A DNA stretch of 64,000 nt from Mobula hypostoma (taxonomy: Eukaryota), in the NCBI RefSeq assembly GCF_963921235.1, contig NC_086097.1, positions 119,786,001-119,850,000 on the forward strand, in the 5' to 3' direction. Position 1 is the first letter of the stretch. Each line of letters opens with the position of its first letter. The notes beneath the pieces were generated by a model that saw nothing but the letters and a program-made list of their open reading frames with translations, made no database searches and was not told the DNA's origin. Below are positions 1,916 through 44,187 of this stretch, in pieces. The position numbers and the translations under genes are program-made.

Positions 1916-1931
1916 ATCCAGCCTTTTTACA

Positions 1932-12950: not shown

Positions 12951-13073
12951 AACAACAGGAATTCTGCAGATGCTGGAAATTCAAGCAACACACATCAAAG
13001 TTGCTGGTGAACGCAGCAGGCCAGGCAGCATCTATAGGAAGAGGCGCAGTCGACGTTTCAGGCCGAGACTCTT
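12951..13073 (-). mobile_element. Short Penelope-like tail insertion with 14-bp TSD
   Basis: CAGTTCATGTATCA at 12937-12950 and 13074-13087. Confidence 0.9.
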
Positions 13074-13438
13074 CAGTTCATGTATCATCTGTTTTTCCTC
13101 GGAAACTCTAAAACCTGTAAAGTCATTTCCAGTGTCTTCACCAGGTGCCGACTCAAACACTGAACCTGGCCATAATTTATGCCAACCTCTCCTTAGTGTG
13201 GATGGCTCTACCGACCTCCAAGCATTAGCAGCACAGTAAATCTTCTCTTTCATATTAAAATCCTTTATAAATTCCTTAACGGTCTGCCAGCATTAACTGC
13301 ACTCAAAAAGCACCTCATAAACAGGGAACGATACTCCGACTTGAAAGAAAGTAATATGCCATTGTCCAGCGGTTGAATTAATGACATACATTCAGCACTT
13401 TATCTGGTTCCGAACTTCCGTCTTTCATTGTTTTTCTT

Positions 13439-16400
13439 TCTTTCTGTTCAAATATTTTTATTGTTATATTATACAGGAAAAATAACATGAGTACATAGAA
13501 GTGACAACACTTACAATGCCTCAAAAAAAACATTATCTTAAAGATTGAAAAAAAATTTGTGATAACAAAAAAAAACCTACTAAGCAGAAAAGTGAGAGAA
13601 AAAGAAAGAACCCATTAGGTGTACAACCCCGGAATCATGCGTCATACAAAAAGCTTCTAAAAATAAACATCAAACCACCAGCAAGAAATGAAAATATGCT
13701 AAAAAATTTACAATTAGATCATGGAAAAATATCAATTAACTCAAATGATAATAACGAGCAAATGAGCCCCATCTTTTCTCAATGTCAAATAAAGGTTGAA
13801 AGGTTCAACTTCTAATTTTCTCCAAACTAAGACATAGCATCACTTGAGAGAACCATTGTGACAAAGTGGGAGCTGATGTATCCTTCCACTTCAACAAAAT
13901 GGCCCTCCTAGCTATCAATGTAACAAATGCAATAATATGTTTGTCGGACACAGAAATACCATGAATATTTTGAGGAATTATTCCAAAAAGCACAGTTAAT
14001 TTATTAGGTTGTAATTTAATTTTAAGTGCTTTAGAAATTGTTGAAAAACCCAACTTCCAGACCTGTTCCAATATAGAACAAGACCAAAACATATGTGTCA
14101 GTGTATCTATCTCAGTTTTACATCTATCACAATGACTACCAACATTAGAAAAGATTTTAGAAAGTCTCTCCTTTGTCAAATGATAACAATGTACAATTTT
14201 AAATTGAATCAATGAATGGCTAACACAAATTGAAGAAGAGTTAACCAACTTCAATATCCGTATCCAATCCTCCGTCATAAAAGTCAAATTAAATTCCTTT
14301 TCCCAATCCTGTTTAATCTTAGATAAAGGATGCTTATCCTATTGTAATAATAAATTATAAATTATTCCAATAGAACCCTTAATCAAAGGATTCATACTCA
14401 TAATAGTATCTAACAGGTCAGCCTCCAATATGTAAGGAAAATTACTTAAATATTTTTTGTAAAAAATGTCTAAATTGAAGGTATTGCAGAAAGTGTGAGT
14501 ATGAAAGAGAATATTTATCAATTAATTGTTCAAAAGACATCAATCTATCTTCTTTAAATAAATCCAAAAAAGAATTAATACCTTTATTTTTCCAAAGTAA
14601 AAAAATTGGATCACACAAAGAAAGCTTTAAAAAGTAATTTCGGTAAATTAAACTACAAAGTTTAAATTTTTTAAGATTAAAAAAATTGCGGAATTGAAGC
14701 CAAATTTGTAAAGAATACTTAATCACAGGATATAAGTTTAAATTAACAACTTTAACTCATTGCATAGGTAAAGGAGCTCCCAATAACGAGGTTAAATAAA
14801 ACTGTTTTATAACTTTCAGTTCCAGGTCTACCCAAATTGGCCAATCACTCTTATCAACCCAGTATAACCAAAAAGACATATATCGCACATTAACAGCCCA
14901 ATAATACATTCTTAGATTAGGCAAAGCAAGACCTCCATCCTTTTTCAATTTTTGTAAGTAACATTTACTAATTCTTGGTCTTTTATCATTCCAAATAAAA
15001 GATAAAATAATAGAATCAATCCGATCAAAAAACTTCCTAGTCAAAAAAACCGGAATATTCTGAAATAAATATAAAAAATTCGGTAAAATCATCATTTTAA
15101 CTGTATGAATACGACCAACAAGTGAAAATGTAAGTGGACTCCATCTACTAAATAAATACTTCATAGAGTCTACTAAGGGAACAAAATTGGCTTTATAAAG
15201 ATCCTTATATTTTTTAGTAATTATCATACCTAGATATCTAAAAGAGTCTGTAACTTTCAAAGGAGTATTATCATATAGAGAGACAGAATCATTTAAAGGA
15301 AACAATTCACTTTTATTAAAATTTATTTTATATCCTGAAAAACTTCCAAATTCATTAAATAATTTTAGCAAGGCAGGAATGAATTTGTAAGGGTTAGATA
15401 TATAAACCAATAAATCATCAGTGTAAAGAGAAACCTTATGCATGGTCTCATTCACAAAAATCCCATTGATATTTTTAGCCTCACGAAGAGCAATAGCAAT
15501 AGGTTCTAATATTAAATTAAACAACAAAGGACTTAATGGACAGCCTTGCCTTGTCCCCCGTGAAAGCTGAAAAAAAGGAGACCTACAATTGTTAGTGACA
15601 ACAGTAGCAATAGGGGCTTTATATATCATTTTAATCCAATTATTAAAATTAGCACCAAAACCAAATTTCTCTAAAACATTGAATAAATATTTCCATTCGA
15701 CTTGGTCAAACGATTTTTCAGCATCCAAAGATACAACACATTGTGGAGTATTAAAAGAGGACGAATATATAATGTTAAATAGTCTCCGAACATTTGAAAA
15801 AGAATAGCGACCCTTTATAAAGCCTGTTTGGTCTTTAAAAATAATTTTACCCAAAATATTCTCCAACCGATTGGCCATTATCTTTGACAAAATCTTAGCG
15901 TCGACATTCAGTAATGAAATAGGTCTATATGAAGCACAGTCAGTAGGATCTTCATCTTTTTTAAGAATTAAAGAAATAGAAGCCTCATAAAAAGTAGTGG
16001 GTAAGTCACCTTTCACAAAAGAATCCTTAAACATTTCCAACATATACGAGAAAACAACTTTCCAAATTTTTTATAAAATTCTACAGGATAGCCATCAGGT
16101 CCTGGGGACTTAACAGATTGCACTGAAAAAATAGCTTTATGAATTTCGGCTTCAGTAATTTGACCATTGAGAGTTTTTTGATCCTCAGCCGAGATTTTAG
16201 GAAAAACAATCTTTCGTAAAAAAACATTCATTTCAGAGGAATCTACCGGACATTCAGATTTATAAAGCTCAGCATAAAAATCTTGAAAAATCTTATTAAT
16301 TTCTTCATATTCCTGAGCTAAGGTACCATCTTTCCTACGAATTTTCATGATTTGCCTTTTGGCTGCAGCCATTTTTAATTGAGATGCAAACAGTTTATTA

Positions 16401-17446
16401 TTTTTATCTCCAAAAATATAAAATTGGCTCTTTAACTTAAGCAAATATCCTTCAATGGGATGAGTTAATAACAGGTTATATTGTGATTGAAGTTCCACCC
16501 TCTGTTTAAATAAATCAGTATTGGGGGAAATTGCATAGGTATTATCTAAATCTTTAATTTGTTTTGAAATTCTATCTAACTCTGCTTTAGTTTGTTTTTT
16601 AAGTTTAGCTGAATAAGAAATAATCTGACAGGGCAGTCAGTAGCTTTGAATTCTATCGTAGATCACTTTGCTTTTTCGCGTTTCCGGGTGTGCGTGGGTG
16701 GGTTTAGAGTTAGGAGTTTTTTCCCATTGGGAGGTTCCAGAGCATGCATGCTTTTTATCTGGTTGTATTCTTCATCACCGGCATTTTTGATCATCCCGTA
16801 TTGGTATGTGCTCTGTGCATGTATAAAGTAGAATAAAATTATAGTATGGTATTTAAACGGATTAATATAAAAGTTGGAATGTACGTGGTTGGAATCATCC
16901 TATTAAACGAAAAAAGACTTTTAAAATTATAACCAATTCCAACCTAATATAATTTTTGCTCAAGAGACACATATCAGGGCGGGAGATCAAAATAGATTTT
17001 TTAGATGGTGGAATGGTTTGCAATTCCATTCTGCTTCTCAGAATAAAACAAAAAGCATGTCTATTTTTATTAAACCTAATATATTTATTCAAGAGGATAT
17101 TGAATCAGATTCTAATGGTAGATTTTTAATTGTTAAAGGAACAACCTGTAACAGAAAAGTTGTTTTGGTTAATTTGTTGTGGTCCTAACTTAGATGATCC
17201 TTTTTTTAAAAAGGTAATTGCTTTATTGCCTGATTTAAATGAATATGTGCTGATAATGGGTGGGGATTTTAATTGCTGCCTAAATCTTATGATTGATAAG
17301 AGCTCAACCAATCAGCGACTTCCAAATCAATCCGCGTCATTTATTAATTCCTTTTTGATTGATTTTGGGTTGATTGATTTGTGGCGGTATCTCCATCCGG
17401 ATAATAGAGAATATTCTTTCTTCTCACATGTTTATAAAAATTATTG
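13439..17446 (-). mobile_element. L1-clade LINE with inverted 5' segment
   Basis: Minus-strand RT ORFs (YRPISLLNVDAKI, SLDAEKSFD, GTRQGCPLSP, YTDD, C-terminal CDRC..H..WSC) at 13805-16625; plus-strand APE endonuclease remnant (SWNVRG..., MGGDFN, YSFFSH) at ~16870-17446; TSD ATTGTTTTTCTT at 13427-13438 and 17447-17458. Confidence 0.92.
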
Positions 17447-17924
17447 ATTGTTTTTCTTACGCACATCTATTTCTTTGAATCACTATGAGCAAAAAAATGT
17501 AGTAGTTTTCTTTCTGGTTCTTTATATCATACACTGTGGAAGAGCCAATGTTGTAACAGTCGCACAAGCTTTTCATCGAAACACCACTGTCCAGTTTTTT
17601 TCAAGAGTGCAACCTTATCTTTAATTGATAATGTGCAGTGTTTTCGCTTTTTACGCTTCACAGCACAAGGTGCATTTCCTTTACTCACTGGGGCCATAAC
17701 TGGGGCTAAAAAGAGCCAATGATATTAATAAATGCAGGAAAACAAGCAGGAATCACCTTTCTGTGTTTACAAAAGTTCGCCAACATGCGAACAGATCTAC
17801 CTCAACCAAAACAATGTGCAGCAGATTGGTACAGTGGCCCGGGAAATTTGAAATTACAGTTGCGCGGAAAATTTGAAATCAGTGCCGGATTATTGAAGGA
17901 ACCAGATTACAGGTAGTTGTATTA

Positions 17925-19255: not shown

Positions 19256-19381
19256 CGAACTGGTGATTGTGAAAAAATTGTTTACCGGGTGTCTGTAGAG
19301 ATGCAGTTCATTAGTCCCTTGCTAATAGCCACTAGACTCAGCGATGAGAAAACCACCTTTCTCAAACTCCATATGCCTAGG

Positions 19382-19475
19382 ATCCTGACGAAGGGTCTCG
19401 GCTCGAAACGTCGACTGTACCTCTTCCTAGAGATGCTGCCTGGCCTGCTGCGTTCACCAGCAACTTTGATGTGTG
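19382..19475 (+). mobile_element. Short Penelope-like tail insertion starting at the hammerhead core, 9-bp TSD
   Basis: ATGCCTAGG at 19373-19381 and 19476-19484; CCTGACGAAGGGTCTCGGCTCGAAACGTCGACT. Confidence 0.9.
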
Positions 19476-20794
19476 ATGCCTAGGGTCAGTATGACTTGAG
19501 TCCCAACAAAACTGGGAAGTTGGGATATTTCAACCACCCAAACCCCGATCTGTACAAATATTGTGTAAGCACTGCCCCCATGCAATTAGTCATCAACAAG
19601 AAATAACAGATTGTACACTGCATACAATTATAAAGAAAGTATATTTACAAATTTTAGCTTTATCGAACAGTTAGTAGGAAAAAGAAAAGAAAAAAAATTA
19701 AAAGGGCCCATTGCCGTTAACCGAGTCCAAATGTGCACATAAATTGGAGATCATCTTGAAGTTGTCTTTAACTCATGTGCTGGACCCATGTTCTGCATGA
19801 AAACACACACCACCTTCTGAATGTCATTCGAAATCCATCTCAGAGAAACGGGCTGCCCCATGGGAGTATTGGTCCTTCCTCCTTGAAGCCATTCATCTGC
19901 ACAAAGCACGCTGTGCAACAGGGATGGCATCCTCAGCCATCTTCCCTCCTGTCTTCTCTCAGCTCCTGCTAAAAAGACCTTGACTCACACCAGTGTCCAC
20001 TCTAGAACTTCCTCTCAACTCCACCATCCAGATTTGCTGACACAACATTCCTAAGTTGAACAACATAGCTCCCTAGCTCAAAACCAAACATGCTAAAAGC
20101 AGAATCAACTACTCCTACAGAACGGCTAAAATGAAATACCTACAGGATAGCAGTAAAAATCTTAACCAGGGCATTACAATTGCATGAAATGGGGAAGTAA
20201 CCTGTGTCAAGCAACTCACACACCAAGGCCTTTTCACCATCTATAAGGTGCAAGACAGAAGAATTATGGTGTTTGGATCTGTAGAAGGAAGAAACTACTG
20301 AGCAGAGAAGCATCATTGGTTGATTCAATGGAAAATTAAGGAGACAGAGGAGGAAGGAATGAAGGAGGCAGAACATATTATTAACTAAGCAACAGGAGGG
20401 ATACTCACTGTGGCCATTATGACCAGAGCAATCCCCCACTAAACTACTGCTCTGAGAGTCTTTGACAAAGAGCAGAGTTTAGCCCAATCTGTTTTCTTTC
20501 CTTCTCTTACTGTTCTTAAATCTTATAGCCTCAAAACAATAATGATCTGGTGCTTCATAACACAAATGCATGAAAAATCTTTGTGTAATTGCATATCATT
20601 TATCTTCTTACATGGTCCTCTGTACTTCTACACAATGCAAACTATATGGGTTCAAGAGGCAACAAGCTGTTCATATTTGAGTTAAACCATCAATGATCCT
20701 CGCCATATTTTCTTTGTTTCACTGGCTGGCTTCTTTCCCCATTAATAGTTAAGGGAATCTTCCTAATGCTTCTAATCATCCTTATTATCAGTCC

Positions 20795-23190: not shown

Positions 23191-24237
23191 CATGAGGGGT
23201 GATTGATAAGTTTGTGGCCTAAGGTAGAAGGAGTCAATTTTAGAAAACCTAGCACATTTATTTTTCAACATAGTCCCCTCCTGTATTTATACACTTAGTC
23301 CAGCGGTCATGGAGCATACAGATCCCTTCTTTGTAGAAGTCAGAGTCTTGAACCTCCAGAAAGTGGTCCACAGAAAGTTTGTGGCTTAAGGTAGAAGGAA
23401 ATGTGTTATACAGCTCTCGTTACATGCACATGCAGTTCAATTGTTTGAGTGATTATGCAGAAGGTTTGAAGTTAATAACTCATCTCCTTCTACCTTAGGC
23501 CACAAAACTTATCAATCACCCCTGCTGTGGACCACTTTCTGGTGGTCCAAGACGCTGACTTCTACAAAGAAGGGATCCGTACGTTCCAAGACCGCTGGAC
23601 TAAGTGTGTAAATATAGGAGGGGACTATGCTGAAAAATAAATGTGCTAGTGTCGGGTTTCGGTGGGACTCAAGTGCAGACCAACGAAGACTTTTTCACCA
23701 GGATTTATTAGGGAGCACAAAGGCAACAGTCTTTCAAAAACAGAAGGCAGGCACGAATCCGAAATGGCAGGCAGAGGTCTTAACCAGGAAGGGCAGTCAG
23801 GCGAGGGAAGACAATCCAGAGCGCACAGGCAAAAATCAGGTCCAAGAACGGGCAAAATCCAAAACACAGAATCAGGCAAAATCGGTTGGCAGAAGTCACA
23901 ATGACAGGCTAGAACGACACAGGTCAGAACTGGGATGAACTGGCAGAGAATGCTAGTCAAGGCGGGGTTTAAATGGACAGGGTAATGAGTGAAAATTAGA
24001 AATAGTTGGGTGCAAATGAGGAGACAAGCAGGTAGCTGGAGGAAGTCCAAAAAGGAAAGGGACTGGGCCAGAACCCACATGGCCAGGTGAAAGAAAACAG
24101 AAATTAAAGACTGTCGTGATCCAGAGCTACCACCAGAGGCCCTTCGACCCAGTGTTCAGGCCGGATCCTTAACAGCTAGGTTTTCTAAGATTGACGCCTT
24201 CTACCTTAGACCATGAACTTATCAATCACCCCTCGTA
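23191..24237. mobile_element. Mariner-type MITE with long TIRs, interrupted by a solo LTR
   Basis: Left CATGAGGGGTGATTGATAAG / right CTTATCAATCACCCCTCGTA; arm 23191-23372 is the inverse of 23525-23649 plus 24175-24237; TA at the right end. Confidence 0.88.
23650..24174. mobile_element. Solo LTR, 525 bp, with 5-bp TSD
   Basis: TG...CA termini; GCTAG at 23645-23649 and 24175-24179; minus-strand AATAAA near 23705. Confidence 0.85.
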
Positions 24238-24239
24238 TT

Positions 24240-25362: not shown

Positions 25363-25364
25363 CG

Positions 25365-26076: not shown

Positions 26077-27121
26077 TTCAGAATGGCAGGCGGTGACTAG
26101 TGGGGTACTGCAAGGCTCAGTGCTGGGACCCCAGTTGTTTACAATATATATTAATGACTTGGATGAGGGAATTAAATGCAGCATCTCCAAGTTTGCAGAT
26201 GACACGAAGCTGGGTGGCAGTGTTAGCAGTGAGGAGGATGCTAAGAGGATGCAGGGTGACTTGGATAGGTTGGGTGAGTGGGCAAACTCATGGCAGATGC
26301 AATTTAATGTGGATAAATGTGAAGTTATCCACTTTGGTGGCAAAAATAGGAAAACAGATTATTATCTGAATGGTGGCCGATTAGGAAAAGGGGAGGTGCA
26401 ACGAGACCTGGGTGTCATTATACACCAGTCATTGAAAGTGGGCATGCAGGTACAGCAGGCGGTGAAAAAGGCGAACGGTATGCTGGCATTTATAGCGAGA
26501 GGATTCGAGTACAGGAGCAGGGAGGTACTACTGCAGTTGTACAAGGCCTTGGTGAGACCACACCTGGAGTATTGTGTGCAGTTTTGGTCCCCTAATCTGA
26601 GGAAAGACATCTTTGCCATAGAGGGAGTACAAAGAAGGTTCACCAGATTGATTCCTGGGATGGCAGGTCTTTCATATGAAGAAAGACTGGATGAACTGGG
26701 CTTGTACTCGTTGGAATTTCGAAGATTGAGGGGGGATCTGATTGAAACGTATAAGATCCTAAAGGGATTGGACAGGCTAGATGTGGGAAGATTGTTCCCG
26801 ATGTTGGGGAGGTCCAGAACGAGGGGTCACAGTTTGAGGATAGAGGGGAAGCCTTTTAGGACCGAGATTAGGAAAAACTTCTTCACACAGCGAGTGGTGA
26901 ATCTGTGGAATTCTCTGCCACAGCAAACTGTTGAGGCCAGTTCATTGGCTATGTTTAAGAGGGAGTTAGATATGGCCCTTGTGGCTACAGGGGTCGGGGG
27001 GTATGGAGGGAAGGCTGGGTTCTGAGTTGGATGATCAGCCATGATCATAATAAATGGCGGTGCAGGCTCGAAGGGCCGAATGGCCTACTCCTGCACCTAT
27101 TTTCTATGTTTCTATGTTTCT
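26077..27121 (+). mobile_element. Young CR1 LINE copy 3, 5'-truncated, 8-bp TSD
   Basis: ORF 26093-27025 (RT C-terminal half); AAAATTAG at 26068-26075 and 27122-27129. Confidence 0.97.
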
Positions 27122-27301
27122 AAAATTAGTGGATATGGAAAGGTAAAAAGGATAATCATGCGGGAGCATTTTGGTGTATTCTAATTTAGCATGTTTATGG
27201 AAATGATCAATCAGGCTTAAAAGTTCTGTACTTTATGTCAGTCTTAAGCAGTTAAAGGTCTTGAAGCAGTTACTTGAACATTTACCATGTAAAAAAAATT
27301 G

Positions 27302-27347: not shown

Positions 27348-28158
27348 CTATATATGAGATATAGGCAAAGTAGGAAAGGGTCAGGACCAAGGTCATCAGT
27401 GTATGGAGTCAAAAATATGTATATAGCTATATAATTCCAAGCAAATACTTTATGTCTGACGAACAAAATAGGTGGCTGGACCAACATATGAACTGAAGGA
27501 GAAAGAATGAGAAATAGCAGATATGCAAACTTAGAGAAAGTGCAGACATAATATGTTGCCTAGCATATTTAAAAGACGATTTTCTTCCCAAAAGGTGAAA
27601 TATAGCACAAGTTGTTCAAATACTGTAGGCAAAGAAGGAAATAGCACAGAAGGTGGCCATCATTTTCCAACTACCTTTGACTGTAGAACAGTGTCCGCAG
27701 ACTTGAATTCTGTTAATATGGTACTATTCTTTAAAAAGATACCATATCAGAGTTAGCTTAATATTGGTGGTGAACATATAATTGAAAAACAAAATCTGCT
27801 GTGCTGTAGAAATGATCATTTACAAACATAGGCTAATCAGAGATGGCTTGTCATAGAGTCAAGGAACAACACATCATCAAGATTGGCCCTTCAGAATAAC
27901 TTCTCCAGTCTAACCAAATTGCCTAACTAAGATCATCCAATTTACCTGCAATTGGCCTATTTCCTTCTAGATCCTTCCTATCCAAAGTTAGTAAAGGGAA
28001 GGTTACAATTAACACACCTATATTGTTTTTGCTGAGATAATAAAGATGATCAATGACAGTTGCATGTATAATGTAGTCTAATGATTTTTAGAAAAGTTCA
28101 AATGGCAGGCTAATCAGATAATCATGAAACACCAGAAGAAGTGTCAGCTGGATCCAAA

Positions 28159-28373
28159 CATGAGGAAATCTGCAGATGCTGGAAATTCAAGCAACACTCA
28201 CAAAATGCTGCTAGAATGCAGCAGGCCAGGCAGCATCTATAGGAAGAAGTACAGTTGACGTTTCAGACCGAGACCCTTCATCCTGATAAAGGTCTCAGCC
28301 CAAAACGTTGACTCTACTTCTTCCTATAGATGCTGCCTGGCCTGCTGTGTTCTATCAGCATTTTATGTATGTT
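28159..28373. mobile_element. Fold-back pair of Penelope-like tails joined at the hammerhead core
   Basis: Inverted arms meet near 28282; decayed TSD AGCTGGATCCAAA / AGTTGGATTCAAA. Confidence 0.85.
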
Positions 28374-30341
28374 AGTTGGATTCAAAATTGGCTTAGCGAT
28401 TGGAAGGATGTGTGGAGGAATGTTCTGCTGGCTTTGAGTCAGGTAATATATAGCAAATATTCATGAATGATTAAAGTAAAAACAAAAGTTTTGGAATAAA
28501 AATAACAGGTTTGAAGATGATATCAAACAGGTGAAGCAGATGATAATAAGAAGTTCCTTTTAGGTTGTTGGAAGGTGTGAACAAAAAAATTAGATAAGGA
28601 AAGAAAGTGACAATTGATTTAATCTGTTGACAGATGAGGTAATCAATTTTGGCAGGACTGAGTTGGGAACAAAATATAAATGGAGAGCTATTAAACAGTG
28701 TAGAACCATAGAGATATCTTTGAGTGTATGTCCCTTGGGAAATGTTTTAAGAATAGGTCAACAAAACCCATGAAAAATAAATTTCACTCAACAAAAAGAA
28801 TTGATTTGCTAAAAATCTAATGCCATAGATATATCAAGAGCTGAGGGTATAACCACCTCTAAAGCAAACAAAAGTAAACAGTGAACATAGGCTATAAGTA
28901 AAAGGGAAAAGATTGAAAGTCATTTAAGAAGACAAGTTGACAATATGGTTGGAAGGCATTAAAGAATATTGATTTTTATTGACCAAGGCATAACATATTT
29001 TACCAGTTGATATCAACTCCAGTTAGCCACAGAGAGACAGCTGATTACAGTTCTGCTCACCAGGATGAGCTGTTCCACAGTGTTTTTTGGTTGTTTATAG
29101 ATAGGGTGATTAATGTATGCCAATGCTTCATCAGATGTTATTGGAACTTCGCAAGTATTGGGTGTAGTTTATATATGTATTAAGAACTCCTAGTTGCCAT
29201 GAATGTGGGACAGAAACAAATGCTTTTTGGTAGTCAATACAACAACTTGAAAGTTTTGTGCTTTTGAGCTGGGCTTGGTTTAGGATTACGGCATTTAATA
29301 TCAGTTGTTCTTTACATCCTATCATGCCCTTAAAGCATCTTTTCTGCTCTTCCGTAGGTACAAATATATTGTGGTTATCTAAGTGAGTGATGATTAGTTG
29401 TGAGATACATGATGTTACAATTTTCTATGTAGTTTGTTTACAAGTAAATCAATGTCATCTGTGGTTTCTCCTTTAGGTAAGAGGTATGTTTTACTTCCTG
29501 TCAAAAATTTGGGAACTTTTTCAGGATTTCTAAGAAAATTATTGTTATGTCCATAATACAGGTAGATAATTCCTTGAAAATGGTGTCACAGGTAGATAGG
29601 GTTGTAAAGAAAGCTTTTGGCACATTGGCCTTCATAAATCAAAGTATTGAGTACACGACAAACAACAGGAATTCTGCAGATGCTGGACATTCAAGCAACG
29701 CACATCAAAGTTGCTGGTGAACGCAGTAGGTCAGGCAGCATCTCTAGGAAGAGGTACAGTCAACGCTTCAGGCCGAGACCCTTCGTCAGGACGAACTGAA
29801 TGAAGAGTTAGTAAGAGATTTGAAAGTGGGAGGGGGAGGGGGAGATCCAAAATGATAGGAGAAGACGGGAGGGGGAGGGATGGAGCCAAGAGCTGGACAG
29901 GTGATTGGCAAAGGAGATATGAGAGGATCATGGGACAGGAGGCCCGGGGAGAAAGACAAGGGGAGGGGGAAACCCAGAGGATGGGCAAGGGCTATAGTCA
30001 GAGGGACAGAGGGAGAAAAAGGAGAGTGAGAGAAAGAATGTGTGTATAAAAATAAATAACGGATGGGGTACGAGGGGGAGGTGGGGCATTAGCGGAAGTT
30101 AGAGAGGTCAATGTTCATGCCATCAGGTTGGAGGCCAATCAGACGAAATATAAGGTGTTGTTCGTCCAACCTGAGTGTGGCTTCATCTTTACAGTAGAGG
30201 AGGCCGTGGATAGACATGTCAGAATGGGAATGGGATGTGGAATTAAAATGTGTAGCCACTGGGAGATCCCGCTTTCTCTGGCGGACAGAGCGTACGTGTT
30301 CAGCAAAGCGGTCTCCCAGTCTGCGTCGGGTCTCGACAATA

Positions 30342-30608
30342 TGTGGCCTTCTATATATTGGCGAGACACGACGCAGACTGGGAGACCGCTTTGCTGAACA
30401 CCTGTGCTCTGTCCGCCAGAGAAAGCAGGATCTCCCAGTGGCCACACATTTTAATTCCGCATCCCATTCCCATTCTGACATGTCTATCCACGGCCTCCTC
30501 TACTGTAAAGATGAAGCCACACTCAGGCTGGAGGAACAACATGTTATATTCCATCTGGGTAGCCTCCAACCTGATGGCATGAACATTGACTTCTCTAACT
30601 TCCACTAA
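30342..30608 (+). pseudogene. Penelope-like GIY-YIG endonuclease C-terminal remnant
   Basis: CGLLYIGETRRRLGDRFAEH...VATHFN...RLEEQHVIFHLGSLQPDGMN. Confidence 0.88.
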
Positions 30609-30903
30609 TGCCCCACCTCCCCCTTGTAGCCCATCCATTATTTATTTTTATACACACATTCTTTCTCTCACTCTCCTTTTTCTCCCTCTGTCCCTTTGAC
30701 TATACCCCTTGCCCATCCTCTGGGTTTCCCCCTCCCCTTGTCTTTCTCCCCGGGCCTCCTGTCCCATGATCCTCTCATATCCCCTTTGCCAATCACCTGT
30801 CCAGCTCTTGGCTCCATCCCTCCCCCTCCTGTCTTCGCCTATCATTTTGGATCTCCCCCTCCCCCTCCCACTTTCAAATCTCTTACTAACTCTTCCTTCA
30901 GTT

Positions 30904-30939
30904 AGTCCTGACGAAGGGTCTCGGCCTGAAACGTCGACT
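30904..30939 (+). ncRNA. Minimal type I hammerhead ribozyme
   Basis: AGTC-CTGACGA-AGG(GTCTCGG)CCT-GAAA-CGTC-GACT: stem I AGTC/GACT, full core, palindromic ACGT stem III, predicted cleavage after C30935. Confidence 0.82.
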
Positions 30940-31033
30940 GTACCTCTTCCTAGAGATGCTGCCTGGCCTGCTGCGTTCACCAGCAACTTTGATGTGTGTT
31001 TATTGAGTACAAGAGATGTTATGTTGAAATTGA

Positions 31034-33596
31034 TTTTTTTTTTAATTTTTTATTTTTATTTGGATAAGGAATTTACAAGTATCATGAACTTTTTTCACAT
31101 GTATAACCTTTTCCATTTTTTTATATGTGTATAAAACTATAATTATTTATACATTCCTAAGTACACATTAAGATGATATGAAACGAAATTAGAGACTTAA
31201 GTAGATAATTATGTGCAGTTGAAATCCTACTCTATTAGGCTAAGTAATGATATTAGTTGTTAAGAAAAATAATAATAATAGTGGATTAATAATAATTTCC
31301 ATATATCTCTTCTGGACCATTTCTTTCTGGCCCAAAATGTTGTATGTAAGCCTATGTAACTACCATTGTAGGTGTTTATATCCTAACTTGTTCATGTTTG
31401 CTCCTCCCCCCAAACATAATTATCCAATCCCTATGTACTTATTTCCTTAATTTTATCATTTTTTATCTCTTTCCCAAATCTTTTCCTTTACTTGTGTTAA
31501 TTCTCCATTTTCCAAAAAAAGAAAACAAGAACAGTAAACATTCAGACCAGGGGTGCTTACGTTAGCAATATTACTGTGTTGATGAGAAGAGCAGTATAAA
31601 TCATTAGGAGAGTCATCTAAAGTCTGCTGGCTTTGGGGTTATATATTCAATCCATTTATTCCAAATTTGATAAAATTTTTCTTTTTGAATTCTCAGAGAG
31701 TAAGTCATCTTTTCCATTTTAAATATTTCCAAGATAATTTCGTGCCAATCTTCTGATGTAGGTGGTATTGGATTTAGCCACTTTCTCGTGATTGATTTCT
31801 TACTTGCTGCTGAAAGGGCCTGCAGCAACTTTATATCTTTCTTCTGTTCAAGAAACAATACATGTCTCAAAGTTCAGAGGTATCTGGGTCTTAAGTACCT
31901 TAACTAATGTTCTGTGAATATCTTTTCAATATAAACTTAATTTAGGGCAATCCCAGAAAATATGGAAATGATTTGCCTCCTTGGAGCCGCACCTTCTCCA
32001 ACACGTCACGTTTGTGTCTTTATATTTTACCTGATATGGGGTCCCGAAGTATCTTATAATATTTTTCTAACAATGTTCTCTCCAAGTCAAAGAGTTAGTC
32101 GAAGACCACTGAAAGCTGCATGTTTTCCCCCAAGCCTCCTCTGAACGTACCAACCCTGCTTCTTTCTCCCACTTCTCTTTAATATACAATGTGTTTACAT
32201 TTTTAGCATGGGAGAGTGCATTTTATAATCGAGAAACTGATTTACTTGGTATTGAACTGCAAGCCGAATTCAGAATCTTGAAAAATTCTAATTCTACTGT
32301 TGATAGGTCTGTATATCTACAACTCTGGTTCACATAGTGTCGTACTTGAAGGTACCTAAAAAAGTCATTGTGTTCTAGGCCATGTTTGTCCTGCAGGAAC
32401 TGGAAACTTTGTAATACTCTTTTATGTATAAATGAGAGGTAGGTTGTAAGACCTTTCTTTATCCATAGTTCAAATCTTTTATCTCCTCTGTTGGGAAAGA
32501 ATTCAGTATCATATGCACACCATCTGAAAAGTTTTAACATGTTATTGATTCCACATGAATTAACCACCTTCTGCCATACTTTTAATGTAAGATTTATCCA
32601 GCTGTTTCTAAACTTTTCCAATTGGGCCATCAATCCTTTATCTGCTATTGAGGCCTGTAGAGGAAAACTGTCAACTAATCCAAATTCTATTTCCTTCCAT
32701 CTAGCCTTATATTCCCTATTACACCAATATAACAGGGGGGTTGTCTGTGAAGCATAGAAATAATTTCTCAAGCAAGGAAGTACCATACCTCCTCCTTCCT
32801 TCCCTAACTGTAAGGTGTTATATCAAATTCTAGGTTTCTTTCCTTGCCAGATAAAGCGGGATATCCATTTGTCTCATTCCCTGAATTGATTATCATCCAC
32901 CTCCACGGGTAAAGTCCGGAAAAGATAGAGTGACCGAGGGAGAATATTCATTTTTATGGTATTTATCCTTGAATTTAAACTTAAAAAGGGGATAAGATTC
33001 CATCTATGCATATCTGCTTTTATCTCTGAAATTAATGGCCCATAATTTACCTGTGGCAGCGTTGAAAGATCCTTCGGCAGGGTTATTCCTAAATATTTTA
33101 ATGATTTAGCTTCCCACTTAAGATCACATGTATCCTGTAGTTTTTTGGATGGCGTATAATTTAGGGACATAACCTGCGTTTTCTTTACGTTTATTTTATA
33201 ACCTGATATTTTCTCAAAGTCATCCAACAGTGTAAACAATCCTATAAATGATTTTTCTGGTTCACTCAGATAGACTGAAACATCATCTGTGAATAACGCC
33301 ACTTTCTGTTCAATCCCTGCCACCTTGATACCTTTTACAATTTTGCTCCATCTTATTAGTTGGGCAAGCGGTTCAATGTATAGCGCAAAAAGGAGAGGAG
33401 AAATTGGGCATCCCTGTCTAGTGCCTCTCTCTAAAATAAAGGAGTCAGAGAGGTCCCCATTTATCTTAATTCGAGCTGTAAGGCTGTCATGTAAAGTTTG
33501 GACTACTTTAATAAACTTTTCTTGAAAGCCGAATCTTCCTAACACTCTGTATAGTAATGCCCAACTAACTGAATCAAAAGCTTTCTCAGCGTCTAA
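31034..33596 (-). mobile_element. L1-clade LINE, 5'-truncated, 16-bp TSD
   Basis: T-rich tail at 31034; ORFs with GTRQGCPISP, LFTDD, KYLGI; GTTATGTTGAAATTGA at 31018-31033 and 33597-33612. Confidence 0.92.
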
Positions 33597-34133
33597 GTTA
33601 TGTTGAAATTGAAAAAAAAAAAGTGTTGGTGAGGCCTAATTTGGAGTATTTTCTGCAGTTTTGGTCACCTATTTACAGGAAAGATGTAAACAAATTTGAA
33701 AGAGTGAAGAGAAAACTTACACAGATGTTGCTGGACCTGGAAGACAAGAGTTATAAGGAGAGATTAAATAGGTTGGGGCTGTACTATTTAGAATGTAGAA
33801 GACTGAGAAGAGGTTTGATAGAGGTATACAAAATTATGAGGGGTAAAGATAGGGTAAATGCAAGCAGGCTTTTTCCACTGAGGTTGGGTAGGACTACAAC
33901 CAGAGGTCGTGGGTTAAGGATGAAAGGTGAGTAAGTTAAGGGGAACATGAGGGGAAACTTCTTCACTTAGAGGGTTGTCAGAGTGTGAATTGAGCTGCTA
34001 GCACAAGTGGTGCATGCGAGCTTGATTTCAAGATTTAAGATAAGTTTGGATAGGTACATGGATAGTAGGTGTATGAAGGGTATGGTCTTGGTGAAGGTTT
34101 ATGGGAGTAGGCAGTTTAAATGGTTTTGGCATG

Positions 34134-34640
34134 TTCACATTCCCATTTGGATATATCCATGCATGGCCTCCTCTACTGCCATGATGAGACTAAACTCAGG
34201 TTGGAGGAGCAACACCTCATATACCGTCTGGTAAATCTTCAGCCCCTTGGTATGAACATTGAACTCTCCAAATTCCAGCAATTCCCTCCCTCTCCCTTCC
34301 CCTATTCAAGTTTCACTCTCCCCCCCCTCAGCTGCCTACTACCTCCCTCATGGTTTTGCCTCCTTCTACTACCCATTGTGTTTTCCCCTATTCCTTCTTC
34401 ACCTTTCCTGCCTATCCCCTCCCTGCTTCCCCTCCCCCACCCCTTTATATTTCCCCTTACTGGTTTTTCACCTGGAACCTTCCAGCCTTTTCCTTCCCAC
34501 CCTTCCCCCACCTTCTTTATAGGGCCTCAGCCCCTTCCCTCTTCAGTCCTGACGAAGGGTTCCAGCCCGAAACGTTGACTGATCATTTCCACGGATGCTG
34601 CCTGACCTCCTGAGCTCCTCCAGCGTGTTGTGAGTGTTGC
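34134..34640 (+). mobile_element. Penelope-like 3' fragment (second subfamily), 9-bp TSD
   Basis: SHSHLDISMHGLLYCHDETKLRLEEQHLIYRL; TTTGGCATG at 34125-34133 and 34641-34649. Confidence 0.9.
34543..34582 (+). ncRNA. Minimal type I hammerhead ribozyme (variant)
   Basis: TCAGTC-CTGACGA-A-GGG(TTCCAG)CCC-GAAA-CGTT-GACTGA; 6-bp stem I, GUU cleavage triplet. Confidence 0.8.
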
Positions 34641-35449
34641 TTTGGCATGGACTAGATGGGCCCAAGGGCCTGTTTCTGTGCTGTACTACTCTAGGACTTT
34701 ATGTATTTAAAGTTACAGGTGACGGCTATTACATTTTTCATACCAATAATTATAAATTTATCTCTGCTGGTACTTTTCCAGTTGTAGGTTTTTTTTATAA
34801 CCAATTTTAGCATTTTCATTATAACTTAAGATGTGTGCATGTCTTCAATTGCATGTGTGTGTTCTTTTTCCTCCTTAATACAGCTTTCTTCTTGATCGTG
34901 TATTACTCTGTCTGACCAGATATTAGACAAAATTTCATTACCTCTGTGTTTCTTTTGGTAATTCTGTGCTAGGGTTGGTGACATTTTGGTGTGTCGAATT
35001 TAGGTTTAATTCCCTGTGTAAACCTTTCTCATTTTTCCTGAACTGACAATTCAGTTTCCTTCATCTGGTGCATTTCAAGTATCTACTTAGTCTGGTTTTG
35101 TACACACCAAGATTTTGTTTTAGTGTATCTTGATTATATCTTTTGTGGACCTTATATTTTTTAGTATTTCCTTAACTTTATTTTTAATTTTCTTGCTCTG
35201 GTTATCTACTTTATACTCCATTTGGTGGTCCATTTCTGCTCTGGAGGTTTCAAATTTGTTTCTTAATCTCTTCTGTCATTTCAGTCAATTTTAGCTTTCT
35301 ATTACTATTAATGAGTGCCTCTATTTTGGATTACGTTGCTGTTAATGCTGCGTAGTATGATATTGTGCATAGTTCTTCAAATGCTTCAGATTCTCCCAAA
35401 TATTGTGGTAATATAATATTGTCTAGAGTATTAACAATTTTTGAAAATT

Positions 35450-37429: not shown

Positions 37430-38470
37430 ATCAGATTTATCACCATATCCATTTACATGTATTCAAAATTTGCTGTGGTGTTTTGGCGCAATTGAACCAA
37501 AAACATTCAACACTTATAAAGAATAAACTATTAAATAAACCAGGGAGTTAGATGTTGAAGTATGGAAATAAAAAAATGTGCATAAATACATAAATGTCAG
37601 CATGTATTTAGAATGTAAACAGCATTTTAAAAAGTGTTCTAAAGTGTTTACAGTGCAGTGACTGACATGATAGAGAGAGGGTGGAAGGGGGTGGTAAATG
37701 GAATAGTTGATAAGATTAACTACCTGGGAAAAGGAACTTTTAAGATGGCGTCCAATCACAAACAAGAGAAAATCTGAAGATGCTAGAAGTCCAAGCCAAA
37801 CACTCAAAACGCTGGGACTCAGCAGGTCAGGCAGCATCTATGGGAGAGAGGAAACAATCGATGTTTTTGGCCAAGATATCCTGATGAATGGTCTCAGCCT
37901 GAAACACTGACTGTTTACTCCTTTCCATAGATGCTGTCTGGCCTGCTGTGTTATTCCAGCATTTTGTGTATGTTGTTTAAGATGGTGTGAAGTTTTTGTT
38001 TTAACAGGCCTATAGTGCTTTCCAGATAGGAGCTTTTGGAAAAGGCAGTATACAGGTGGGTAGTGTCTACAATGATTCCACCTGCAGCCAATGACCTTTT
38101 CTACTGACCTGACAGTTCACTGCAGTTTCCATATATTGTGAGAGAACGCTGCACCAAACCAGACAGTAATGTCTGATGTGACGATTTTCTCCATGATGGT
38201 GGTGTAGAATTGCACAAGATTGTTCTGGGGAAGAAGGAATTTTACCAACTGCTGCAAGAAGCAGTGATGTGCCTTTTTGTTAATGGAGGAGAAATGGTTC
38301 TCTCACTTGAACTCCTGCAAAATAATGATGCCCAGGAACATGAATGTTGAAATGGTGCTCACTGTCGGGTTGTTGATGAGTGGGTGGAGAGGAGACACAG
38401 TTCTTCTGAGGTTGATATGCATCTTCATGGCTTTGAGGGCATTCAGCTCCAATCTGCATGGTGTTAGAGC
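37430..38470 (-). mobile_element. REX1/L2-like LINE 3' fragment
   Basis: Minus-strand ATTACTGTCTGGTTTGG (ITVWFG); FFSQVVNL remnant. Confidence 0.55.
37752..37975. mobile_element. Fold-back pair of Penelope-like tails joined at the hammerhead core, 13-bp TSD
   Basis: Junction near 37880 (ATC|CTGATGA); TTTAAGATGGCGT at 37739-37751 and TTTAAGATGGTGT at 37976-37988. Confidence 0.85.
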
Positions 38471-40554
38471 AGTCAAGCCTCAGACAGCCACCATAACCCT
38501 TAACACATTTAAAATGTCATGAAATAAAAATGAACATCACAAATGAAAATTGTAAATAGAAATAATGTGAGACATGTCATCTGAAATCATTATGATCATA
38601 AGATGGAAACATTATAGACTATCATGCAATGATATGTCCTCTCTATCCTGTACCTTACACAGAATTAACCCTTAACTGGAATCTATGAAATATAAGGGCA
38701 TATATCTCTCTCTGAATCTCTTCAGGTAAATAACATAGTGTGCGGTTCCCTTGAAAGCTGTCATTTAACATTGAATAGTATTCTTTCTTTGTGCATGGGT
38801 AATAGATTCTATCTTTACTTTTCTATGAGTTGTCAAAGTTTTCTCTGAAACTTCCCCAGTTTATAAAGCAAAAATGGAAACCTTGCCTATTTCATTGTCA
38901 TAACCTTCTGATTTGATTGTTATCTTCATTATGATTCAGATTTATTTATCACATGTACATCATAACATACGGTGAAATGCATTATTTGTGTTAACAACAA
39001 CCAGCACAACATAAGGAAATGCTAGGTGCAGCTCACATGCGTCACCGCATATTCCAGTGCCAATACAGCATGCCCACTATATTCAGTAGAATAACACAAG
39101 CAACAATAACAATTGCAGTAATTTATTAATAAGTTTAATAATGTATTGCTATTACAGTGCCATGATCATTAATCGGAGTTCAATAAGTAAGGAGTTTGTA
39201 CATTCTCCCCATGACCGTTGGCATTTTCTTCAAGTGCTCCAGTATCCATTGACATTCCAAAGACATACAGATAAGGGTTAGTATGTTGTGGGCATGCTAT
39301 ATTGGTGCTGGAAGCATCATGACTCTTGAAAACTGCCCCCAGCACATATCTGGACTGTGTTGGTCGTTGATGGAAAGATGAATTTTTCTGATAGATTTTG
39401 ATATTTTGACATACTATACATGTGACAAATAAATCTGATGTTTAATCTTTTAATCTTTAGTCTTTATTTATTCAACCTGGACAAAGATTACTTTATTGGT
39501 GGGCTGTTACTTCTTCAAAGTGATGGAAAACAAGATGGGAATCTTCATGAATTCCAAAGACAAAACATTGCACTGAAATGAAATGATTAGATTTGAACTT
39601 TGTCTGACTAGATATGTTAGCAGAGACTTTGTATTGACCTCGAAGCTAAAGCTTTCAAAGATATAACCAATGGTTAAGTCCATTAGCACCTTGAAGAACT
39701 GATTTAGGACCTAACTTATCACTAACTCCTGATTCCCTTTATTATTTAATTTATTTAGTGATACAGGTTGGAGTAGGCCCCTCTGGCCCATCGAGCCATG
39801 ATGATCTAGCAGCCCCACAACCCAGATTAACCCTAACCCAATCACAGGACAGTTTAAAATGACCATCTAATCTCTCCGCTACATCTTTGGTCTGTAGGAA
39901 GAAACTGGAGCATCCAAATAAAACCCAAGTATTTCGCAGGGAGGACGTACCGAGACTGCTTACACATATTATACTCTGCTTGCTCTGTAGGAACAGAGAC
40001 CACCAACACTTCTGTCCTTTAAAGAAATGTGACTGACATGTGTAACAACACACAGAATATTAGATCCTCATAATCACATAGCTTTATACAACTTCCATGT
40101 TGTACCTTCTGCAGGTATTACTTATTACTATTATAAATCATTATTTTGCTTTCATATCACTTGAAACAATCCAATTTCAGACCCCCAGTTCAGGTTGCTT
40201 GTATAAGTATTTCTCAGGCAGACAGTCTATGCCAAATAAAACTTCTCAATTTGTATGACTAGAATGACTCCTCCAGCTGCCTCGGACTGTCATTCTGACT
40301 ATTGTCGTCAACAGCATTTCCAATGTTTACACTTCATGTCTTTAAGCTTATTGGTTCACAATGTGATCAGTTCTCAACTGGCCATTTAGCCTGTTCTCTC
40401 CTTGCATATTGGCCATTCATAATATATTTCCTTGTTATTTAGCTTGCAATGTAAATCGTTTGCCTTGTATCTGAGCTTAATCAGTTCACCATCCCGTTGA
40501 GCACAAGAATTGCCCTTCATCGGTCAGGAATTGCCTTGGCTTGATAAGAAACAA

Positions 40555-41240
40555 TTTTAGATTTAGATTATGAGGACACTCAGTCCTTGTTTACTGTCAT
40601 TTAGAAATGCATGCATGCATTAAGAAATAATACAATGTTCCTCCAGAGTGATATCACAAAAAAACAAGACAAACCAAAGACTAACACTGACAAGACCACA
40701 TAATTACAACATATAGTTACAGCAGTGCAAAGCAATCCCGTAATTTGATAAAGAACAGACCATGGGAACTGTAAAAAAAAGTCTCAAAGTTCCGATCGAC
40801 TCCTGATAGTCCCCGATAGCAGGCGGCAAAAGGGAGAACCTCTCTCTGCCATAAACCACCAGGCACCGACAACTGTTGATGCATTGGAAGCACCCGACCA
40901 CAGCCGACTCTGAGTCTGTCCAAAAACTTCGATACTGACCAGCCCTTCGACACCGAGCACCGAGCGCCATCTCTGCCGAGTGCTTCGACCCCATCCCGGC
41001 TGCTGAGCAACAAGCAAAGCCAAGGATTCGGGGCCTTCACCTCCGGAGATTCTGGATCACACAGTAACAGCGGCAGCGAAAAAGACATTTCAGAAGTTTC
41101 TCCAGATGTTCCTCCGTTCTCTCACATCTGTCTCCATCAAATCAGGATTGTGCACGGCACCCTACTTGACAGATCACAGATACCATTCACCGCAGTGGCC
41201 GCGCAAGCTGCGTCGTGCCACCATCTTCTCCTCCTCCTTG
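40555..41240 (-). mobile_element. CpG-rich non-autonomous retroelement with LINE-type tail
   Basis: Minus strand starts GGAGGAGAAGATGGTGGC and ends ...ATCTAAATCTAAA; many intact CpGs; no credible ORF. Confidence 0.6.
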
Positions 41241-42364
41241 CCTACTAGCTCTTGCCTAGTAATTTTCTGTTGTTTTACCTTCCGTTTTGAAGATTTGTAT
41301 TCCATTTCATCATTGGTATTCAGGAGGGTATTTCCACAGCTCTTCGTACTGCAGAGTCATGTGGTGTTCTTGTATTTTCCCAATTAGAAAGTAACCACAG
41401 ATGCGTTTTTCCAGGGGCTGTTTTGCATCCACTTCTTTGATCTGATGTTCGAGTTTCGGGAGATCACATACATCGAAAAATTGAGATCTACAGTCCCAAA
41501 TTGCTCAACCACGTTCTGTATATTGAGACTATTTCCAGACAAAGTGCATGAAAAAATGGTCCATTAAACACTATAATTGCAGTGAGGATGCTGAAAGAGT
41601 TAAAGAATATAACTAAATTTCCTCGGTAGCTCTCATCTGCTCCATTATAAATTCACCTGAAATGTGGTGGTGTAATTCATGTTTATGAGCTCAAATGAAA
41701 CACATCTCCCAGTGAAGCTGCAGGTGGACAGAGGCAGAAATTCAGCAGAATTTTACCGAGATTTGCTCCAGTCCATACATTATAACATGAAATCAGCATA
41801 GATTTTGACATGTCATCAGTCAAAATGCCATCAGTGCCAAGAGTAGTTGATTGTTCCAAAACTTTAATAAAACTATAAGAATTTTTGAGTTTAACTTACC
41901 ATTGTAACATTATAATAGATTTAACACCAATGTGCAGAGTGCGGGGAGATTGTTAGATTGATAACCTTGTCAGTGTTAAAATTTATAACTCTTCAAAAAC
42001 CACCTTAAATCTGTGGGATAATTACTGCTTCCAACATTTACTTTGAAGTCCATGATGGATTTCTGAATCTCACTGTCACGTTAAATCATTGTTTGATATA
42101 AGCTCTACCATAGCTTTGCTACAGGCAAAAAACCAAAATAACTTATGCTAATACAATTTCATATTGAATATGTACAGACCTTCATGATCATGTCCTATCC
42201 AGGCTTTAGTATAGATTTTCACATTAGCTCTTTGACCACCTAACGTCAGGCAGGAGGTACTGTAGGTTTATACCAGCTTTATACATTTGAATTTATACTA
42301 GATGCATTTACAGTTACAATTAACTCATAAAACATTGCGTCTTTGAGATATAGGAACAAACTTG

Positions 42365-42905
42365 CTCTCAGCGTCCACCTTATTAGATACAACTGGTACA
42401 ACTGCTTGTTAGTGTAAATATCTAATTAACCAATCATATAGCAGTTACTCTATACCTAAAAGAATGCAGACATGGTCAAGAGGTTCAGTTGTTGTTCAGA
42501 TAAAACGTCAGAAAAGGGAATAAATATAATCTACTGTAGGTGATTTTGACGGGGTAATTGGTGTCAGACGGGGTGGTTTGAGTATCTGAGAAACTACCGA
42601 TCTCCTGGGATTTTCATGCACAACAGTCACTAGAGTTTACAGAGAATGGTGTGAGAAACAAAACAAAAACATCCAGTGAGTGGCAGCTCTGTGAGCAAAA
42701 AAGCCTTGTTAATGAGGAGAATGCCAGATCAGTTCAACCTGGCAGGAGGGTGACAGTAACCACATGTTACAATAGTGGTGTTGAGAAGAGCATTTCCAAA
42801 CACACAAGTCAAACCTTGAAGTGGATGGGCTACAGAGGCAGAAAACCACAAACGTATACCTAGTGTCCTCTTTTTTGGGTACAGGAGGTACCAGTGAGTG
42901 TATGT
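42365..42905 (+). mobile_element. Tc1-derived non-autonomous element
   Basis: Transposase N-terminal remnant LGFSCTTVTRVYREWCEK..TSSEWQLCEQKSLVNE; decayed termini ending CAGTGAGTGTA. Confidence 0.7.
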
Positions 42906-44059
42906 GGTAACATGGGGAACGTACATGCTCTAAACACATAATATCATGAGTCAAGATCGAAACTGGTCTCTAGGGCTGTTCTAGGAGAATGAGTAGGGTA
43001 ATAGCTCTTTCTGGATATCAAAAGAAAGCAAAGTTTTGCAAGAAGGGGTTTTTACAGGAAACAGACTGATTCCTGCACTCATTTTGAAAAGGGAGCGAGG
43101 GATGCTAAGTGTACATTAGATTGGATATCAGGGAACCTCAGGGCTTTCACAGCTAACTCTGCTGCATGGGACTGGGATGAAGTTTTGGGATCAATCAGAA
43201 CTTTGACCTGCAGCTCCTATGTTCAGAGTTTCAGAACACCCCACCACACCTTGATTCCTTACAGCTATGGAACACAAAGAGGAAACAGAAATTCTGTGGT
43301 CCAAGGTGAGTGTGAATTCTATGCAAGTAACTATTAGGGGTGTTTACAAGCTGCTGCTATTTAATTTTAATTTAGAGATACAGCATGATGATGAGCTCTT
43401 ATGTCTAATGAGCCAACGTTGCACAAATTGTATCCATGTGACCAGATAACCTACCAACCTGTAATCTTTAGAGTGTGGGAGGAAACTGTAACACCCAGAG
43501 GAAACCCACATGGTCATGGAGAAAACTTACAAAAAGCTTATGGAGAGCAGTGGGCATTGAACCCCAATTGCTGGCGCTCTAATACCATTATGCTAACCAC
43601 TACACTGACGTGCCACCCATTATCATGTTGACTGTGTGAAGAGGTGGGGGGGGAGATGTTTGCCCACTTTCAAGCCTACACCATGGCATGTGGCTGCATG
43701 ATATGGGTGTCTGAGTGCGGTCGTGAAGGGGCAACATCCCATCTGTCTCTGAATGTAAATGCGAGTGAGCTGCTATCTGTGAAGTCCGATATACCTGCTG
43801 AAGGTAGCACCTGTAAATGCCTGCAAGAAAATGAGTCTCAGTGTAGTATATGGTGATATATACAGCACATACGGCACTTAGGTAATCAATTTACTTAGAA
43901 GTTTATTATCTTTGTGATACAGTGAAAATCGTTTTGTTTGTGCCATTCAGATAGGTCATTCCACGCATAAGCACTTTGAGGTAGACCAAAAGACCATAAG
44001 ACATAGGAGCAGAATTAGGCCATTTGGCCCATCGAGTCTGCTCCACCATTCATTCATGG

Positions 44060-44187
44060 ATGATGAAGGGTCTCGGCCTGAAACGTCGACTGTACCTCTT
44101 CCTAGAGATGCTGCCTGGCCTACTGCGTTCACCAGCAACCTTGATGTGTGTTGCTTGAATTTCCAGCATCTGCAGAATTCCTTGTGT
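44060..44187 (+). mobile_element. Short Penelope-like tail insertion starting at the hammerhead core, 12-bp TSD
   Basis: ATTCATTCATGG at 44048-44059 and 44188-44199; inserted in an old minus-strand CR1 tail. Confidence 0.9.

Follow-up and report, generated by a model that had tools for sequence, protein, structure and literature searches.

What fixes the point at which a short retroelement copy begins? The question is raised by four short insertions in a 64,000-nucleotide stretch of the Mobula hypostoma genome (C1:119786001-119850000, hereafter the window), all of which begin near the core of a hammerhead ribozyme. These insertions, which we call stubs, are the hammerhead-plus-tail end of a young Penelope-like element (PLE). 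All element positions are given with the C of CTGA as 0, so that the predicted cut site is +27|+28; TSD stands for target site duplication.

12951..13073, minus strand: solo stub with tail, element +5/+6 to +129; 14-bp TSD at 12937-12950 and 13074-13087
19382..19475, plus strand: solo stub without tail, one extra A, then -2 to ~+90; 9-bp TSD at 19373-19381 and 19476-19484
44060..44187, plus strand: solo stub with tail, one extra A, then +1 to ~+122; 12-bp TSD at 44048-44059 and 44188-44199
1929..2027, plus strand: stub without tail, +2/+3 to +96; 5-nt inverted-tail match in front; no TSD found

The initial annotation described four TSD-flanked insertions of ~95-130 bp. All four are present and three have the TSDs it gave, while a search around 1932-2027 found no TSD of at least 6 bp; beside this stub, at 1929-1933, lies ACAGG (5 nt), a match to the inverted tail (+120..+124). 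The 5' ends (window order 12951, 19382, 44060, 1932) fall at +5/+6, -2, +1 and +2/+3, and each stub spans the predicted cut site (4/4), as had been claimed.

The clustering of 5' ends extends to the whole genome (3.48 Gb scanned). Exact counts were made at eight positions with patterns that required two non-consensus bases, then consensus sequence and an anchor from the young family. They gave 256 ends at -12, 1,218 at -5, 2,990 at -4, 3,284 at -3 and 1,523 at -2, and on the 3' side 516 at +8, 375 at the cut site (+28) and 216 at +38. Ends at -4 and -3 outnumber those at -12 and +38 by a factor of 13-14. A smooth length decay is not what these breakpoints follow, and the clustering therefore stands. 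The proposal that the 5' ends lie within a few bases of the CTGA core was right about a sharp, non-random cluster and slightly off about its position, the genome-wide mode being -4/-3, upstream of the CUGA core and within the 5' strand of helix I. The count at +28 was made with a stricter filter and becomes ~560 after correction, a weak excess of ~2.4 times background, which agrees with the earlier view that the template was uncut or re-ligated RNA and with the finding that a PLE mainly copies uncleaved RNA in vitro (PMC11167929).

Other counts gave the same picture. Exact-pattern matches to arms holding +3 number 78,255 genome-wide and those holding -7 number 59,653, a loss of ~24% (both probes were intact by eye in 89 of 100 listed long copies). 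A probe for -17..-8 counted 44,990; single-base counts were preferred because this stretch is polymorphic and its probe overstates the loss. In the first 100 pattern matches found on C1, 5' ends within -7..+3 account for 30, and 7 of the remaining 70 have theirs at -8..-18 (Fisher p = 0.002); this sample was classified by hand, comes from one chromosome end and mostly leaves out -17-probe matches, so that the 7 may be slightly low. Young arms (at least 86% identity, older ones excluded) in 160 unselected 10-kb stretches have 5' ends clustered at -5..+2. Solos whose TSD abuts the end likewise stop at -5..+3, so that microhomology or pairing between arms is not required. Searches of genome DNA returning the best 40 matches favor long copies and were not used for histograms, nor were BLAST starts at -3 in old copies counted, being partly an artefact of a query variant. 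Some eight 5' ends were also seen at -15..-19, beside the predicted branch-point A-19 (L086, L205, L218, L257, L259, L279 and L311 among them; small numbers, by eye). A literature search found no paper, by title or abstract, on a 5' breakpoint peak in PLEs, most subscription journals lying outside the search.

The parent element is represented by a full-length copy with a 13-bp TSD (L046), which runs from -265 through a hammerhead, the open reading frame (ORF) and a second hammerhead to +94, the two hammerheads being 3,511 nt apart. The ORF is thus flanked by partial-tandem pseudo-long terminal repeats (pLTRs), as in endonuclease-bearing PLEs, and, again as in these, a C-terminal GIY-YIG endonuclease follows the reverse transcriptase (RT). 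The RT motifs YIDD and GVAMG were recognized by eye in the translation, while Pfam at E 0.01 gave no RT family for the two PLE fragments; PF01541 (GIY-YIG) was matched in both (2/2, E 3e-4, 21 bits, just below the 22.6 cut-off). The RT-endonuclease linker reads CX4CX2C (CKRNKCYTC in translations), and the Neptune-type motif is CX2-5CxxC (PMC8557442). Judging from its sequence, the element is an endonuclease-bearing PLE, probably of Neptune type, an assignment made by linker motif. The suggested Penelope machinery is borne out by the GIY-YIG domain, the pLTRs and the tails.

The hammerhead lies in sense orientation, 3' of the GIY-YIG coding region and a pyrimidine-rich untranslated region (UTR). 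One copy in the window belongs to a long head-to-head insertion:

29656..30342, minus strand: tail-bearing arm, -551 to ~+131; 11-bp TSD of the insertion at 29645-29655 and 31001-31011
30341..31000, plus strand: tail-less arm, -565 to ~+92; GIY-YIG coding end, pyrimidine-rich 3' UTR, hammerhead
30884..30907, plus strand: acceptor region, with branch-point-like TACTAAC (A-19 = 30889), pyrimidine tract, AG at 30900-30901 and initiator-like TTAGTCC (A-4 = 30904)
30903..30940, plus strand: minimal type I hammerhead, with helix I 5' strand, CUGACGA core from 30908, helix II, GAAA, palindromic ACGU, predicted cut 30935/30936 and helix I 3' strand

The protein segment of the arm at 30341..31000 recurs in copies L060 and L092. 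Judged from the sequence, the ribozyme has the CUGAYGA and GAAA core, helices I and II, a palindromic helix III and an NUH cut site. An Rfam scan of the window gave no hammerhead match even at E 1, the monomer is predicted to adopt a different fold and not that of a hammerhead, and its predicted stability is ordinary (z -0.09 and 0.43). The region 30884..30907 also supplies the 5' strand of helix I. We take TTAGTCC to be initiator-like and TACTAAC branch-point-like on the basis of consensus motifs, and the AG at 30900-30901 is a putative working splice acceptor, as the GT-AG tandem insertions described below suggest. A-4, G-3, T-2 and C-1 are invariant in 18/18 aligned copies, 17 of them from older subfamilies (from G-3 onward partly by selection); the context of A-4 is TTAGTCC in the young family and YCAGTCC in older ones.

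At the other end of the stubs, the 3' ends had been described as variable. More than one end is indeed used, in two classes (~+95 and ~+130) and not as free variation: 61 of 126 arms end at +81..105, 52 at +121..140, 10 at or before +80 and 3 elsewhere. This distribution matches a tail set by two internal RT start sites, as reported in vitro for the PAc PLE of Anolis, which also uses uncleaved RNA as template (PMC11167929). Of the 40 head-to-head pairs, 32 consist of one arm with a tail and one without, and in no pair do both arms have tails; the remaining 8 are unclassified or other, some being clipped at the edges of the retrieved sequence. It would appear that one priming site is used per target end. 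The inverted 5'-truncated copy and the one-sided tail of 30-40 bp are features of endonuclease-bearing PLEs. Several apparent solos carry a 5-11 nt piece of inverted tail (L271, L282, L295 and window 1929-1933); an extra A ahead of TCCTG, and likewise the CAGG(A) stubs, had looked to us like traces of a 5' exon or of a micro-inversion, a reading we rejected, the CAGG(A) stubs matching the inverted tail. In one pair (L108:5554-5775) the two arms carry different haplotypes, which implies two RNA templates. Elsewhere, 17 extra bases between TSD and element (L269:1460-1500) resemble repeated copying of the +85..+92 priming region, and 9 of 30 ORF-containing copies (L161-L190) end at +33..+87, in the interval between the cut site and the +95 priming site.

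One option offered for the stubs was a non-autonomous, self-propagating retrozyme-like micro-element mobilised in trans, possibly via a small circle. Their TSDs, small size and many thousands of copies would suit such an element, as would the existence of short tandem arrays (periods 62, 310, 327, 355 and ~455 nt). The haplotypes, however, do not differ between 58 core-ended and 54 long arms (chi-square p = 0.32), and since they are shared with long copies, the stubs do not form a separate mini-element; nor was a private variant found in the 58 core-ended arms (lowest p = 0.051, for a variant that is rarer in stubs). Moreover, the 5' ends spread over ~10 nt, both 3'-end classes are represented, many stubs begin within the core and are without helix I, and the tandem units differ from the solo unit, the mapped ones mostly reaching +291..+317. 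The own lineage, shared derived variants and fixed ends of a short interspersed element (SINE) are likewise missing from the stubs. As for the window itself, 4/4 stubs are monomers and 3/4 start at +1 or later, whereas a retrozyme would comprise at least two tandem units with complete hammerheads. We thus give the micro-element very little credence.

The pattern is real and strong, and the stubs are ordinary truncation and insertion products of a known class; the cause is what we infer. On balance we lean, with limited confidence, toward regarding them as short target-primed PLE copies, likely primed at ~+95 or ~+130 and likely terminated where RT runs off an RNA 5' end close to A-4. RT would start at either of the two internal sites, with one site priming on each end of the cut target to produce solos or head-to-head pairs, and copying would run off the RNA about 100-135 nt upstream of priming. 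The RNA end would most probably be an initiator-type start (TTA-4GTC; YCA-4GTC in older families) or, alternatively, an exonuclease-trimmed end protected by helix I or a bound protein. A transcript starting near -4 and primed in its own 5' repeat would yield precisely the stubs, while longer copies would need templates continuing upstream, such as read-through or circular RNA; the stubs are then likely to be dead-end by-products. Run-off at an RNA end would be expected to leave a mode two bases wide, as at A-4/G-3, and a steep edge upstream of it. Head-to-tail junctions re-enter at the same bases (+57|-4, +75|-3 and ~+326|-4), which also supports run-off. In vitro, a PLE protein starts copying at internal sites and extends both target strands; it requires template sequence reaching into the ORF, and the product length follows the template 5' end, a shortened template giving shorter products (PMC11167929).

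Several observations weigh against run-off at such an end. Contigs of four runs presumed to be RNA gave no interpretable joint or RNA 5' end, and no cap-derived G was evident by eye before -4 among 100 listed ends. The Penelope start site of D. virilis lies 46 nt before a 75-nt intron that ends at helix I (PMC2377424, PMC4209133), which would put it ~120 nt further upstream than A-4. Conservation of -4..-1 does not single out a promoter, because the same bases make up the intron acceptor and a helix strand. Finally, ORF-containing copies mostly pass -4 (2/30 end in -8..+2); their genome-wide loss is ~13% (three probes: 325, 284, 261), about three times that in the next interval and in the same proportion as in short copies, so that a position-specific RT stop fits equally well. 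A separate candidate start near -700, suggested by 30 ORF-containing copies reaching no further than -704, was rejected, other copies reaching -915 to -1475 and beyond.

Such a stop is an unlikely though serious alternative. Here the RNA would continue upstream and RT would drop off at -4/-3 after copying helix I, either through snap-back of the complementary DNA (cDNA), in which the copies of AGUC and GACU pair, or through a splicing-factor block at the branch point, pyrimidine tract and AG. The peak does coincide with the helix I 5' strand, 2-3 nt away from the apparently used acceptor; the excess is of similar proportion in short and ORF-containing copies; helix I microhomology is present at some junctions (L084, L278); and the ~8 ends at -15..-19 (small numbers, by eye) lie beside the predicted branch A. 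On the other hand, such a cDNA hairpin would have just 4 bp, -4/-3 did not stop about three quarters of arms, and within one insertion (L314) the site was passed four times. A boundary set by the acceptor itself, with spliced RNAs being copied and the upstream exon lost or host-derived, is still more doubtful than the micro-element. The acceptor -7|-6 appears to be used in two insertions, and the D. virilis intron likewise ends at helix I (PMC4209133), but the peak is at -4/-3 and not at -6 (true ends make up ~38 of the 100 rows listed for -6), solos have their TSDs directly against the element and no recurring upstream exon was seen by eye among 200 listed junctions. The one upstream donor tested, a strong-looking site near -626, gave no spliced copies (0 exact genome matches) and was dropped as a candidate. 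The least probable account, which the initial annotation had raised, is a stall of RT, either before it enters the folded hammerhead or within it. Ends at +8 and +28 do reach ~2 times background; RT, however, enters from the 3' side, where a fold would halt it near +33 or within the ribozyme, and the peak is reached after the whole ribozyme has been copied, which does not suit a stall before the fold. The counts at +38 (216), +28 (375) and +8 (516) are low, +38, the first contact with the fold, being at background, and the monomer is neither unusually stable nor predicted to fold as a hammerhead.

Tandem multimers do exist, as the initial annotation had proposed to look for; they are rare, with periods of 62 to ~455 nt. 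The most informative (L314, C2:157815050-157818373; array 425-1688), found via a 310-nt period among ORF-anchored matches, is one insertion with an 11-bp TSD and the structure (+68..+303)(-6..+303)x3(-6..+93). Its four hammerheads at 310-nt period, with helix I intact, have the tandem organization of a retrozyme. The junction +303|-6 shows no microhomology, and the parent has GT at +304/305, a branch-point-like motif, a pyrimidine tract and an AG whose last base is -7. Genome-wide, this junction was matched exactly 6 times, all within two insertions (C2 and C50:58412483-58412828), and 2 of 3 insertions joining +301..+331 to the core use it. Copies with the haplotype of both 310-nt arrays have GT at +304 in 8/8 cases vs 2/17 of the others. 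The C2 and C50 arrays differ at +55, the latter being known from its matches, so that its independence from C2 is not proven. Four identical junctions in one insertion indicate a circular template, and L314 is likely, as far as its sequence tells, to be a rolling-circle copy of a spliced RNA circle. The circle could have formed via back-splicing, or via forward splicing between two pLTRs followed by hammerhead cleavage and ligation. The circular-RNA idea, which does not explain the four solos of the window, thus fits rarer tandem insertions elsewhere. A literature search found no paper, by title or abstract, on spliced PLE circles, bioRxiv supplements being outside the search.

Other short tandems have junctions at non-splice sites (L133, L146, L147 and C50:67866319). 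The array at C50:67866319-67866704 has a 62-nt unit (-4..+57) with a hammerhead in each; L133, L146 and L147 are partial tandems (units -64..+291 and -138..+317, junction +294|-105), two of which repeat their own junction twice. At C1:147388384-147389127, three core-edge starts with a 327-nt period lie beside an inverted arm.

A broader scheme can be offered tentatively, and as a whole we consider it possible without being probable. In PLEs, priming would take place within the RNA's own 5' repeat, so that a linear transcript from the ribozyme edge gives only a strong-stop-like cDNA of 100-135 nt, while whole elements need circular or read-through RNA; splicing from a donor in the ORF to the helix I acceptor would make a 310-nt hammerhead circle, copied by rolling circle, a direct path from PLE to retrozyme. 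For the questions of how PLEs are copied, why they retain introns and what their hammerheads do, tens of thousands of copies offer a base-level record of where copying starts and stops. From them follows a sharp expectation: either an RNA ends at -4 or RT stops there. Both GT-AG tandem insertions, moreover, point to a working helix I acceptor in a vertebrate PLE and to the copying of small circles through several rounds.

The window contains further PLE copies of older subfamilies:

28155..28385, no strand assigned: head-to-head pair with pivot at the core, arms starting near +2 and -1
37758..37974, no strand assigned: head-to-head pair with pivot at the core, arms starting near +11 and -2
34135..34642, plus strand: PLE 3' end, not core-truncated; endonuclease C-terminus, UTR, hammerhead
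6496..7063, plus strand: PLE 3' end, not core-truncated; degenerate hammerhead and tail

CR1/L1-like ORFs are abundant as well, and the repeats of the window are like those of a cartilaginous fish. Young CR1-like long interspersed element copies, 93-99% alike, occupy 2295-4600, 10520-12447, 26077-27122, 47806-49598, 54096-56653 and 59987-62295, and other degenerate non-LTR (lacking long terminal repeats, LTRs) RT frames, L1-like and RTE-like by eye, are found at 13805-16636, 31034-33635 and 58839-63746. At 23249-23649 there is a 125-nt inverted repeat with a 151-nt spacer (92% complementary). Outside the window, L082:346-1975 holds a long C2H2 zinc-finger frame, and in L060 a Gypsy-like pol is split by a twin-arm PLE insertion.

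Two familiar processes resemble parts of this picture. In L1 twin priming, two primers act on one target and an inversion results; the PLE pairs differ in having arms of overlapping sequence that begin at two fixed sites and do not always share a haplotype (L108). LTR strong-stop DNA is a short cDNA running off the RNA 5' end.

Closer relatives are the endonuclease-bearing PLEs (PMC8557442, PMC3846280), which share the RT with C-terminal GIY-YIG, the partial tandem pLTRs, the CX4CX2C linker, the adjacent inverted 5'-truncated copy, the one-sided 30-40 bp tail and TSDs of ~9-15 bp. In the accessible parts of these reports, 5' truncation is described without a preferred point, whereas here it peaks at two bases beside the ribozyme. 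The Anolis PAc element (PMC11167929) is similar in its two tail-defining RT starts, uncleaved template, extension of both target strands and product length set by the template 5' end; it is a Poseidon element whose ORF starts in helix II, while the long ORF here appears to start further downstream, and genomic 5' ends are not mapped in the accessible text of that study. The minimal type I hammerheads of PLE pLTRs (PMC4209133) agree in the core, the extra base before helix II, the dimer-requiring palindromic helix III, the intron end at helix I, the solo motifs, the opposite-strand pairs and the proposal of circles as templates. There, as far as the accessible portion of the paper goes, solo motifs are called probably truncated PLEs and breakpoints are unmapped, and the element described here differs further in that the acceptor appears to be joined to a donor inside the ORF.

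CircRNA-derived (circular RNA-derived) pseudogenes (PMC4897178) are likewise genomic copies with a non-colinear splice junction; these are of host-gene origin, while here the circle would come from a retroelement and would have been copied for more than four rounds in one TSD-flanked insertion. The non-LTR retrozymes (PMC7229834; bioRxiv 10.64898/2026.07.22.740005) compare with the rare tandem arrays found here, which have units of 62-455 nt with a hammerhead each and derive from a PLE pLTR; the four stubs differ in being monomers, often without helix I, and in having no lineage of their own. The 310-nt unit is, in addition, set by a GT-AG junction, whereas PMC7229834, in its accessible text, keeps ribozyme circles apart from back-splicing. 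Both sources propose that retrozymes are PLE derivatives.

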